A DNA stretch of 64,000 nucleotides from Escherichia coli (GTDB taxonomy: Bacteria > Pseudomonadota > Gammaproteobacteria > Enterobacterales > Enterobacteriaceae): the NCBI RefSeq assembly GCF_003334785.1, contig NZ_QOWV01000004.1; one strand, 5' to 3'. The stretch's first letter is position 1. Each line of letters opens with the position of its first letter. The notes beneath the pieces are model-generated. The model was given only the letters and a program-made list of their open reading frames with translations. It searched no databases and was not told the origin of the DNA. A program made the translations under genes and the position numbers. This document shows positions 62,410 to 62,682 of the stretch, piece after piece.

Positions 62410-62682
62410 CTAATGACGAACATTAAAACGCAAATGCCCTTCCAGCTCTTCCTCTGCCTCATCAAACAGCAATATTAACGCGCCAAAACGGCGACGCGTT
62501 TTCTCTCCCAGATGAACAAATTCAATCTCAAGTGGTAGCGGCAGGACATCGTTCATTAACACATCCCATAGTGAGTCGAGATCGCGTACCTTATCTTTCG
62601 CCAGACCAAAGGTTTGGCTAAAGTCACGATAAAAATCCTCCTGACTCTCAATCTCATCAAAATCAAAGGTATAAATATTCAT
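62410..62682 (-). CDS. yhcO: Barstar-like protein YhcO
   Basis: 90 aa; [46 protein letters not shown]... Confidence 0.85.

Follow-up and report, generated by a model that had tools for sequence, protein, structure and literature searches.

The barstar-family gene yhcO of Escherichia coli as the probable surviving half of an ancestral RNase-barstar operon

The analysis of a 64,000-nucleotide stretch of Escherichia coli DNA (contig NZ_QOWV01000004.1, assembly GCF_003334785.1; referred to as the window) centres on yhcO, a minus-strand gene at positions 62410-62682 that encodes a barstar-like protein with no ribonuclease (RNase) gene beside it. Our results indicate that yhcO is very probably the inhibitor half of an ancestral barnase-barstar operon from which the RNase gene was lost once, and that the orphan was retained and probably still works as a stoichiometric binder. 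This reading draws on the identity and fold of the protein, on synteny with intact operons, on evidence for a single loss, on purifying selection, on a partial remodelling of the interface and on conservation of the promoter. Earlier records already cover the gene, its barstar fold and its partner-less state (PDB entries 2CX6 and 5F4C; “barstar family protein” in RefSeq). What is new is the evolutionary origin of the solitary E. coli barstar and its maintenance with a partly rewired binding surface, which is a modest finding.

In the open reading frame (ORF) list of the window, yhcO comprises 90 codons and a TAG stop, and RefSeq names it “yhcO: barstar family protein.” A phmmer search of the PDB found its product to be 100% identical to entry 2cx6 (titled “ribonuclease inhibitor Barstar,” with the entity named “hypothetical protein yhcO”) and 77-79% identical to the Salmonella orthologue 5f4c, with barstar itself reached only marginally (E 0.06-1), so that a profile was needed for the family assignment. 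With hmmscan against Pfam-A, residues 1-81 matched positions 1-85 of the 96 in the Barstar model PF01337 (E 2.4e-9). The AlphaFold (AF2) model of YhcO (predicted local distance difference test, pLDDT, 93.8) has the element order E-H-H-E-H-H-E. When compared using Foldseek, it agreed with crystal 2cx6 at a template modelling (TM) score of 0.99 and with the barstar chains of 1brs, 1b3s and 1x1w at TM 0.77-0.81 (root-mean-square deviation about 2.1 Å, probability 1.00), which is the barstar alpha/beta fold of a three-stranded parallel beta-sheet and four helices. The original prediction had described the gene as barstar-like and had proposed structure prediction as a check; the Pfam match, the identity to 2cx6 and the TM of 0.80 to barstar bear out the description, and the model supports the fold.

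The residues expected of an RNase inhibitor of this family are also in place. D36, W39 and D40 in helix 2 and E75 and E79 in helix 4 of YhcO, the putative plug residues, align with D35, W38, D39, E76 and E80 of barstar, so that the helix-2 DxxxD motif, the tryptophan equivalent to W38 and the helix-4 acidic residues are all present. DxxxD is the signature of the Barstar family (Zhang et al. 2012, PMC3482391). The protein is small and very acidic, with a net charge of −11. Profile, fold and signature residues therefore all place YhcO in the barstar family, and only the adjacent RNase is missing; such a position is typical of the family, though Pfam membership does not demand an RNase neighbour. 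NCBIfam, PADLOC and PHROGs returned zero matches for YhcO, which leaves an anti-phage or curated-equivalog role without support. A published study labels yhcO a “predicted barnase inhibitor” and gives its function as unknown (PMC10272880).

The origin of the gene was investigated by comparing its locus across Enterobacterales. An all-against-all HMMER search over 1.8 billion representatives returned only 112 relatives; a scan of one genome per GTDB species gave 80 loci, which were scored in tblastn searches using marker proteins of E. coli and Yersinia, and the synteny table covers 90 loci. In Xenorhabdus (45% identity to YhcO), the order is tldD-RNase-barstar, with the barstar gene 4 bp behind the gene for a 156-aa PF00545 RNase that carries a signal peptide and is plainly homologous to barnase. 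The homologues of the RNase are spread widely over Xenorhabdus, Photorhabdus, Morganella, Yersinia, Serratia, Hafnia, Erwinia and Pantoea, and none of the best 120 matches to the Xenorhabdus-type RNase came from Escherichia, Salmonella or Citrobacter. Yersinia pseudotuberculosis carries aaeR-aaeXAB-Aldedh-RNase-barstar-darP-pmbA, Serratia liquefaciens carries aaeR-aaeXAB-RNase-barstar-darP-pmbA with the RNase gene directly after aaeB, Hafnia carries Aldedh-RNase-barstar-darP, and Pragia fontium (Budviciaceae) carries yhdP-CN_hydrolase-tldD-DUF817-RNase-barstar-darP-pmbA. All syntenic Yersiniaceae, Hafniaceae and Morganellaceae loci have the RNase immediately upstream of barstar (32 unique sequences, or 33 including locus L005). 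The RNase ORF is intact in 36/36 loci that bear one, each with an N-terminal signal peptide, and K27, D54, N58, R59, E60, E73, R83, R87, H102 and Y103 (barnase numbering; catalytic and barstar-contact residues) are invariant in all 36. The spacer of 4-8 bp between the RNase and barstar genes suggests co-translation.

The loci of Enterobacteriaceae (Escherichia, Citrobacter, Klebsiella, Kluyvera, Kosakonia, Cedecea, Siccibacter, Trabulsiella, Yokenella and Buttiauxella) are all without the RNase, as are the yhcO loci of Erwiniaceae (Winslowiella, Erwinia, Mixta, Pantoea and Izhakiella), with an RNase found in 0 of the 52 unique orphan sequences of the two families. These orphan loci have the same left flank as the paired loci, tldD-aaeR-aaeXAB-(Aldedh), followed by yhcO and then by yhcN (one to three copies)-argR-mdh-degSQ. 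Serratia and E. coli differ in essence only in that Serratia has the RNase gene where aaeB and the barstar gene adjoin in E. coli. The proposal that yhcO is what remains of a lost toxin-immunity pair is thus supported by synteny with intact RNase-barstar loci in four families.

In E. coli K-12 the gene order is tldD-aaeR-aaeXAB-yhcO-yhcN-argR-mdh-degSQ. In the window, the 3′ part of aaeB (62774-64000, minus strand, running off the window; identified from RefSeq and the synteny table) encodes a FUSC-family p-hydroxybenzoate efflux subunit on the same strand as yhcO, and yhcN (62091-62354, plus strand), convergent with yhcO, encodes a YdgH/BhsA-like peroxide/acid stress protein (RefSeq; PF07338 on orthologues). 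YhcN is no toxin, neither neighbour is a barnase-like toxin, as had been noted at the outset, and the neighbours over more than 12 kb (tldD, aaeR, aaeXAB, yhcN, argR, mdh and degSQ) include no toxin, Rhs, CdiA or type VI secretion system (T6SS) cluster. With six barnase-family RNases as tblastn queries, no barnase-like ORF was found in the window (best E 0.29). A 901-bp yhcO region was matched in 5426/5426 complete E. coli genomes at 95-100% identity, with at least 80% of it covered in 5419 of them, and the annotation of these matches was always yhcN/yhcO/aaeB. In the same 5426 genomes, Serratia RNase DNA matched only the 3′ part of yhcO, which, as a DNA-level search, is weak evidence of absence.

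The surroundings of these loci vary in other ways. The right flank of the barstar gene is a rearrangement breakpoint: the RNase-bearing families (loci L007-L010, L062-L090 and L093) have darP(yjgA)-pmbA-cybC where the window has its segment 62091-61256, and Enterobacteriaceae and Erwiniaceae have yhcN-argR-mdh-degSQ, with yhcN in one to three tandem copies depending on the genus and in a single copy in E. coli. About 7 kb before the RNase-barstar operon, Serratia liquefaciens (L008, 801-2102) encodes a 433-aa protein with a PT-VENN pre-toxin domain, the hallmark of contact-dependent inhibition (CDI) and polymorphic toxin tips, and two small ORFs come after it. In Hafnia paralvei (L010, 10485-11097), a hicA-hicB toxin-antitoxin pair lies between darP and pmbA, beside the RNase-barstar operon.

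The phylogeny of the barstars and the state of the orphan loci point to one tidy loss. Orphan barstars were monophyletic in 176/200 neighbour-joining bootstraps (88%), and the RNase-paired barstars formed a clade in only 11/200, as expected if the orphans arose once from within the paired sequences. The spacer upstream of yhcO is 23-125 bp in nearly all orphans; among the larger spacers, that of Escherichia albertii is a tandem array resembling repetitive extragenic palindromic (REP) sequence. A relaxed tblastn search (E up to 10) of 4.4 kb in all orphan loci for a decayed RNase gene upstream of yhcO gave only chance-level matches. Enterobacteriaceae and Erwiniaceae are reportedly sister families, according to the phylogenomics of Adeolu et al. 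from 2016. Given this relation and the occurrence of the pair in Budviciaceae, Morganellaceae, Hafniaceae and Yersiniaceae, the most parsimonious account is that a single clean deletion of the RNase gene, on the stem shared by Enterobacteriaceae and Erwiniaceae, would have left yhcO orphaned.

A second gene of the locus was lost later. The aldehyde dehydrogenase belongs to the succinate-semialdehyde dehydrogenase (SSADH) subfamily (TIGR01780 above cut-off), and in most Enterobacterales its gene separates aaeB from yhcO or from the RNase gene (loci L017-L061, compared with window positions 62683-62773). It ends only 23-75 bp before yhcO, with which it is probably co-transcribed. Escherichia, Klebsiella, Pseudocitrobacter and most Serratia lack the gene, and its later loss in the first three is the reason why aaeB is the immediate neighbour of yhcO in E. 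coli. In E. albertii (L013, 9212-9937), the aaeB-yhcO spacer has grown to 792 bp through 4.1 repeats, with 95% matches, of a 177-bp unit. Within the unit are REP-like sequence (GCCTGATGCGCTACGCTTATCAGGCCTAC) and a portion of the aaeB terminator; the CTATACT motif described below and yhcO are unaffected.

The orphan gene is actively maintained under purifying selection and is not decaying. Its ORF is intact in 52/52 orphans at a length of 88-94 aa, and the median ratio of nonsynonymous to synonymous substitution (dN/dS, Nei-Gojobori, NG86) was 0.17 in orphans compared with 0.095 in paired orthologues; between E. coli and E. albertii it was 0.039, and dS was saturated between genera. In the C-terminal half, the relaxation was small (0.12 in orphans vs 0.08 in paired). 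Since yhcO is under such selection, “remnant” should not be taken to mean a decaying relic. Residues 64-87 are nearly invariant in the 52 orphans, a stretch starting RRR(F/Y) is almost invariant in orphans, and the C-terminal half is more conserved than in the paired orthologues. Net charge was −7 in paired orthologues, −9 in the orphan median, −11 in E. coli YhcO and −6 in barstar.

Interface columns were compared in barstar numbering between the 52 orphans and 30 paired enterobacterial sequences; the individual contact residues are those reported by Buckle and co-workers (1994) and by Schreiber and Fersht (1995). L34, D35, W38, D39, E76 and E80 are invariant in both groups. Taken with the peripheral changes described next, this pattern suggests an active-site plug held under strong constraint, whereas loss of the RNase left the peripheral specificity contacts free to vary or to become fixed anew. 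The helix-2/loop segment of barstar is what blocks the barnase active site (quoted in PMC7146069).

Several observations weigh against the reading of YhcO as the retained, still-binding half of a pair whose RNase was lost once. F30, invariant in paired sequences, is K, Q or L with high entropy in orphans; G31, near-invariant in paired sequences (29/30), is V or I; the invariant N33 has become D; and T42, likewise invariant in the pairs, is T or M. After position 44, where paired sequences have no insertion, orphans carry one extra, variable residue, and position 46, variable in the pairs, is an invariant Pro. In E. coli YhcO, these orphan-specific changes are K31, V32, D34 (own numbering) and the extra loop residue. 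The N-terminal half also has a dN/dS of 0.28 in orphans vs 0.11 in paired sequences, a relaxation after the loss. Such changes at the interface mean that binding of YhcO to barnase-type RNases may have been lost altogether. Moreover, the searched literature yielded no functional study, binding or inhibition experiment, phenotype or interaction for YhcO. As for the timing, Pectobacteriaceae lie outside the sample, so the branch of the loss is bracketed rather than pinned, and the sister-group relation of Enterobacteriaceae and Erwiniaceae was taken from published phylogenomics.

The promoter region adds to the argument for a shared ancestral operon. The aaeB intrinsic terminator (62742-62770, minus strand), recognised by RNA folding, consists of an 11-bp stem (AAAACCGACGC/GCGUCGGUUUU), a 5-nt loop and a U run. 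Its predicted stability is −16.7 kcal/mol (z = −6.3, 0/200 shuffles as stable), it is conserved in Escherichia, Klebsiella and Pseudocitrobacter, and it would divide aaeXAB transcription from that of yhcO. Six bases beyond it, GGCTATACTTAG includes CTATACT (62736-62730, minus strand). An extended −10 of this form, with C at −13 followed by TATACT, is typical of sigma-S promoters, and its conservation makes it the likely yhcO promoter. The transcription start, placed from the −10 element, would give a yhcO 5′ leader at 62683-62729 (minus strand), in which a GGTGG resembling a Shine-Dalgarno sequence (62689-62693) precedes the ATG by 6 nt. CTATACT closely follows aaeB in all of the orphan loci (51/51) and in 20/28 RNase-bearing loci that include aaeB, compared with a chance expectation of about 0.006 per spacer, and it precedes whichever gene comes next: SSADH, RNase or yhcO. 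From this constant place, it appears to be the promoter of the ancestral (SSADH)-RNase-barstar operon, inherited by yhcO. The sigma-S-type −10 also fits the published listing of yhcO as RpoS-dependent in E. coli O157:H7 (PMC2907692). Two further studies report that a rapid acid shift induces yhcO (PMC2270276) and that LldR activates it by binding the yhcO-aaeB spacer (PMC10272880).

At its other end, yhcO faces yhcN across a bidirectional terminator region of two adjacent hairpins (62359-62407), identified by a terminator scan and folding. The yhcN hairpin is GCCCCCG-GUU-CGGGGGC followed by U8 and the yhcO hairpin is AUCGUCG...CGACGAU followed by a U-rich tail, with energies of −21.6 and −23.3 kcal/mol and z of −2.9 and −3.8 for the two. 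In a gut evolution study, a 1-bp deletion in the yhcN/yhcO intergenic region (K-12 coordinate 3383867) was present at 6% in one mouse-adapted E. coli population (PMC7518454); its approximate position is around the T8 run in the terminator that the two genes share (window 62400-62409).

Taken together, these data would fit the following history. An ancestral Enterobacterales operon downstream of tldD would have comprised a sigma-S-type promoter, the SSADH-like gene in some cases, a secreted barnase-family RNase and barstar, the latter presumably shielding the cytoplasm of the producer from its own RNase before export. The RNase gene would have been cleanly deleted once in the common ancestor of Enterobacteriaceae and Erwiniaceae, and the later dehydrogenase loss in Escherichia, Klebsiella and Pseudocitrobacter would have brought yhcO up against the aaeB terminator and the promoter of the former operon. 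YhcO itself is a cytoplasmic protein expressed in stationary phase and under acid stress, whose D36/D40/E75/E79 face may plug the basic nucleic-acid-binding or active site of a partner supplied in trans. With the barstar fold and the acidic helix-2/helix-4 plug both kept, steric and electrostatic blocking by stoichiometric binding is most likely still the mechanism, and we infer that a present-day partner exists. On what maintains the gene, we lean slightly towards describing YhcO as a sigma-S-induced, core-genome “antidote without a poison,” kept since Enterobacteriaceae and Erwiniaceae diverged. It would serve either as generic, pre-emptive protection from barnase-family RNase domains that competitors inject, or, through its remodelled helix-2 loop, to plug another, endogenous protein that binds nucleic acids in stationary phase. 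If true, an immunity protein would have outlived its toxin for a very long time and acquired an independent selected role. Such a history underscores yhcO as a clean natural case for the fate of an inhibitor after the loss of its enzyme, and it turns a vague y-gene annotation into one with named candidate ligands, namely the Serratia, Yersinia and Hafnia RNases and the Salmonella Rhs-RNase tips.

Two accounts of the present role, which are not mutually exclusive, have to be weighed. One, possible but rather doubtful in our judgement, is that YhcO is kept to neutralise RNase domains of the barnase family that competing cells deliver into the cytoplasm through Rhs/T6SS, CDI or comparable polymorphic toxin systems; as an account of today's selection on yhcO, it is compatible with an origin from a lost pair. 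The invariant plug residues and the greater acidity of YhcO than of paired orthologues or barstar are consistent with it, as is purifying selection that persists without a cis-encoded RNase. Polymorphic toxin systems, T6SS/Rhs among them, include barnase-type toxin domains that are paired with barstar immunity (PMC3482391), such domains are reported in Rhs effectors of Salmonella pathogenicity island 6 (SPI-6) (PMC10469887), and the habitat-sharing relatives Serratia, Yersinia, Hafnia and Erwinia all make barnase homologues. However, the stand-alone enterobacterial RNases carry signal peptides for Sec secretion and have no known entry to the cytoplasm of another cell, and Salmonella with Rhs-RNase effectors has a dedicated barstar immunity gene despite its yhcO orthologue (5f4c) (PMC10469887), which suggests that YhcO does not cover Rhs-RNase toxins. 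The four altered positions that are invariant or near-invariant in paired barstars also speak against it, as do the monomorphic, core-gene status of yhcO outside toxin loci, which is unlike that of typical orphan immunity genes, and the failure of Serratia RNase DNA to match the E. coli genomes outside yhcO at the DNA level. Finally, barnase-type domains were absent from every Enterobacteriaceae plasmid and every phage searched; on plasmids they were found only in Bacillus, Clostridium and two 4-Mb “Proteus plasmids” that are evidently chromosomes.

The other account, which we judge about as likely as the first, is that YhcO was retargeted to an endogenous partner once the RNase had gone, for example another RNase, a protein that binds nucleic acids or a factor active in stationary phase, and that it now works under sigma-S control as a regulator or inhibitor with no relation to barnase. 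The changes at the interface are conserved and non-random (V/I at 31, D at 33 and the invariant Pro at 46), the near-invariance of residues 64-87 exceeds that of paired orthologues, and expression is tied to stationary-phase, acid and lactate regulons. Erwinia sp. JUb26, which has kept the orphan (L058) beside a separate RNase-barstar pair with its own divergent barstar, argues for a different job of the orphan. Against such retargeting, the residues left invariant are exactly those that plug an RNase, and no partner, phenotype or interaction has been reported in the literature searched. A third idea, that yhcO is a functionless leftover merely not yet lost, could point to the absent adjacent toxin, the unreported phenotype and the somewhat relaxed N-terminal half, but it is hardly credible and effectively refuted by the selection data, as 52/52 orphan ORFs are intact across two families, yhcO is present in 5426/5426 E. 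coli genomes, dN/dS is 0.04-0.17 behind a conserved upstream promoter, and an unselected 270-bp gene would not outlast divergence at which dS is saturated. The remaining probability falls to combinations of these accounts or to something we have not considered.

The closest known systems share some features with yhcO and differ in others. Barstar of Bacillus amyloliquefaciens (PF01337; PDB 1BRS/1A19), the inhibitor of secreted barnase, resembles YhcO in fold, length, acidity and cytoplasmic location, and shares with it the helix-2 L-D-x-L-W-D (D35, W38, D39) and helix-4 E76 and E80. In contrast to barstar, YhcO lacks a cognate RNase gene and is only 20-26% identical, its inhibition of an RNase is only predicted, the equivalents of Y29, Y30, G31, N33 and W44 are not kept, and there is one extra residue after helix 2. 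The operons of Yersiniaceae, Hafniaceae, Morganellaceae and Budviciaceae (for example, Serratia liquefaciens L008, 9001-9755, and Yersinia pestis L085) contain the true orthologues (51-57% identity). Slot and strand agree with those of yhcO, the slot being the one that follows tldD/aaeXAB/(SSADH), and most of these operons have CTATACT upstream. They differ from yhcO in the secreted RNase 4-8 bp upstream, in the invariant F30, N33 and T42 and near-invariant G31, and in the right flank, which is darP-pmbA rather than yhcN-argR.

The Imm-Barstar proteins of polymorphic toxins (Tox-Barnase of Rhs, T6SS and type VII secretion systems (T7SS); Salmonella SPI-6 Rhs-RNase/Barstar) belong to the same family as YhcO (PMC3482391, PMC10469887), and the idea of a barstar protecting against an RNase from outside carries over from them. 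Unlike these cassettes, yhcO lies away from toxin, Rhs, CDI or T6SS loci, is core and nearly monomorphic, and has its ancestry in a simple housekeeping-type pair. The orphan immunity genes of CDI, T6SS and bacteriocin systems are, like yhcO, immunity-type genes without a cognate toxin in the genome. In their classical form they stand in arrays beside toxin fragments that have been displaced, differ from strain to strain and in many cases were acquired recently, whereas yhcO is an old gene passed on vertically and fixed in both families, varies between strains neither in presence (5426/5426) nor appreciably in sequence (95-100% nucleotide identity), and does not lie in or after a toxin, Rhs, CdiA or T6SS cluster. 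With no toxin locus, no polymorphism and vertical inheritance, yhcO falls outside the usual definition of a polymorphic-toxin orphan immunity gene.

Erwiniaceae carry a second, non-syntenic RNase-barstar pair (L009, 9001-9748; L091, 3145-3874; L092, 6001-6775), in the context of AI-2E transporter and Virul_Fac/SrfB genes (L009 and L091) or of a periplasmic-binding-protein gene and VF530 (L092), whose barstar is 35-40% identical to YhcO. The possibility that this is the ancestral pair relocated was set aside: its Kimura distance to the orphans is 1.2, compared with 0.69 between orphans and syntenic paired barstars, and its barstars fell outside the clade of orphan and syntenic sequences in 60% of bootstraps, so the second pair was treated as a separate lineage. 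A “Klebsiella pneumoniae” RNase (P0280, GCA_901544375.1) was likewise rejected as an exception within Enterobacteriaceae, as it lies on a 5.3-kb contig with the Erwinia-type context AI-2E transporter ... RNase-barstar-Virul_Fac; this contig is most likely mislabelled or a contaminant.

Very short contigs in unrelated genome assemblies also carry yhcO sequence: a 241-bp scaffold of Corynebacterium lipophiloflavum (L037) encodes a fragment identical to E. coli YhcO, and a 422-bp contig of Hydrogenophaga intermedia (L054) encodes one identical to Klebsiella pneumoniae YhcO; both are almost certainly enterobacterial contamination in public assemblies. A few metagenomic gene calls (P0029, P0031 and P0032; 137 aa) join the N-terminal 80 residues of YhcO to sequence scored as PF04397 (LytTR), and P0214 (255 aa) has a C-terminal barstar domain after an unrelated region of 170 residues. 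These four may be frameshifted or chimeric calls or real fusions.

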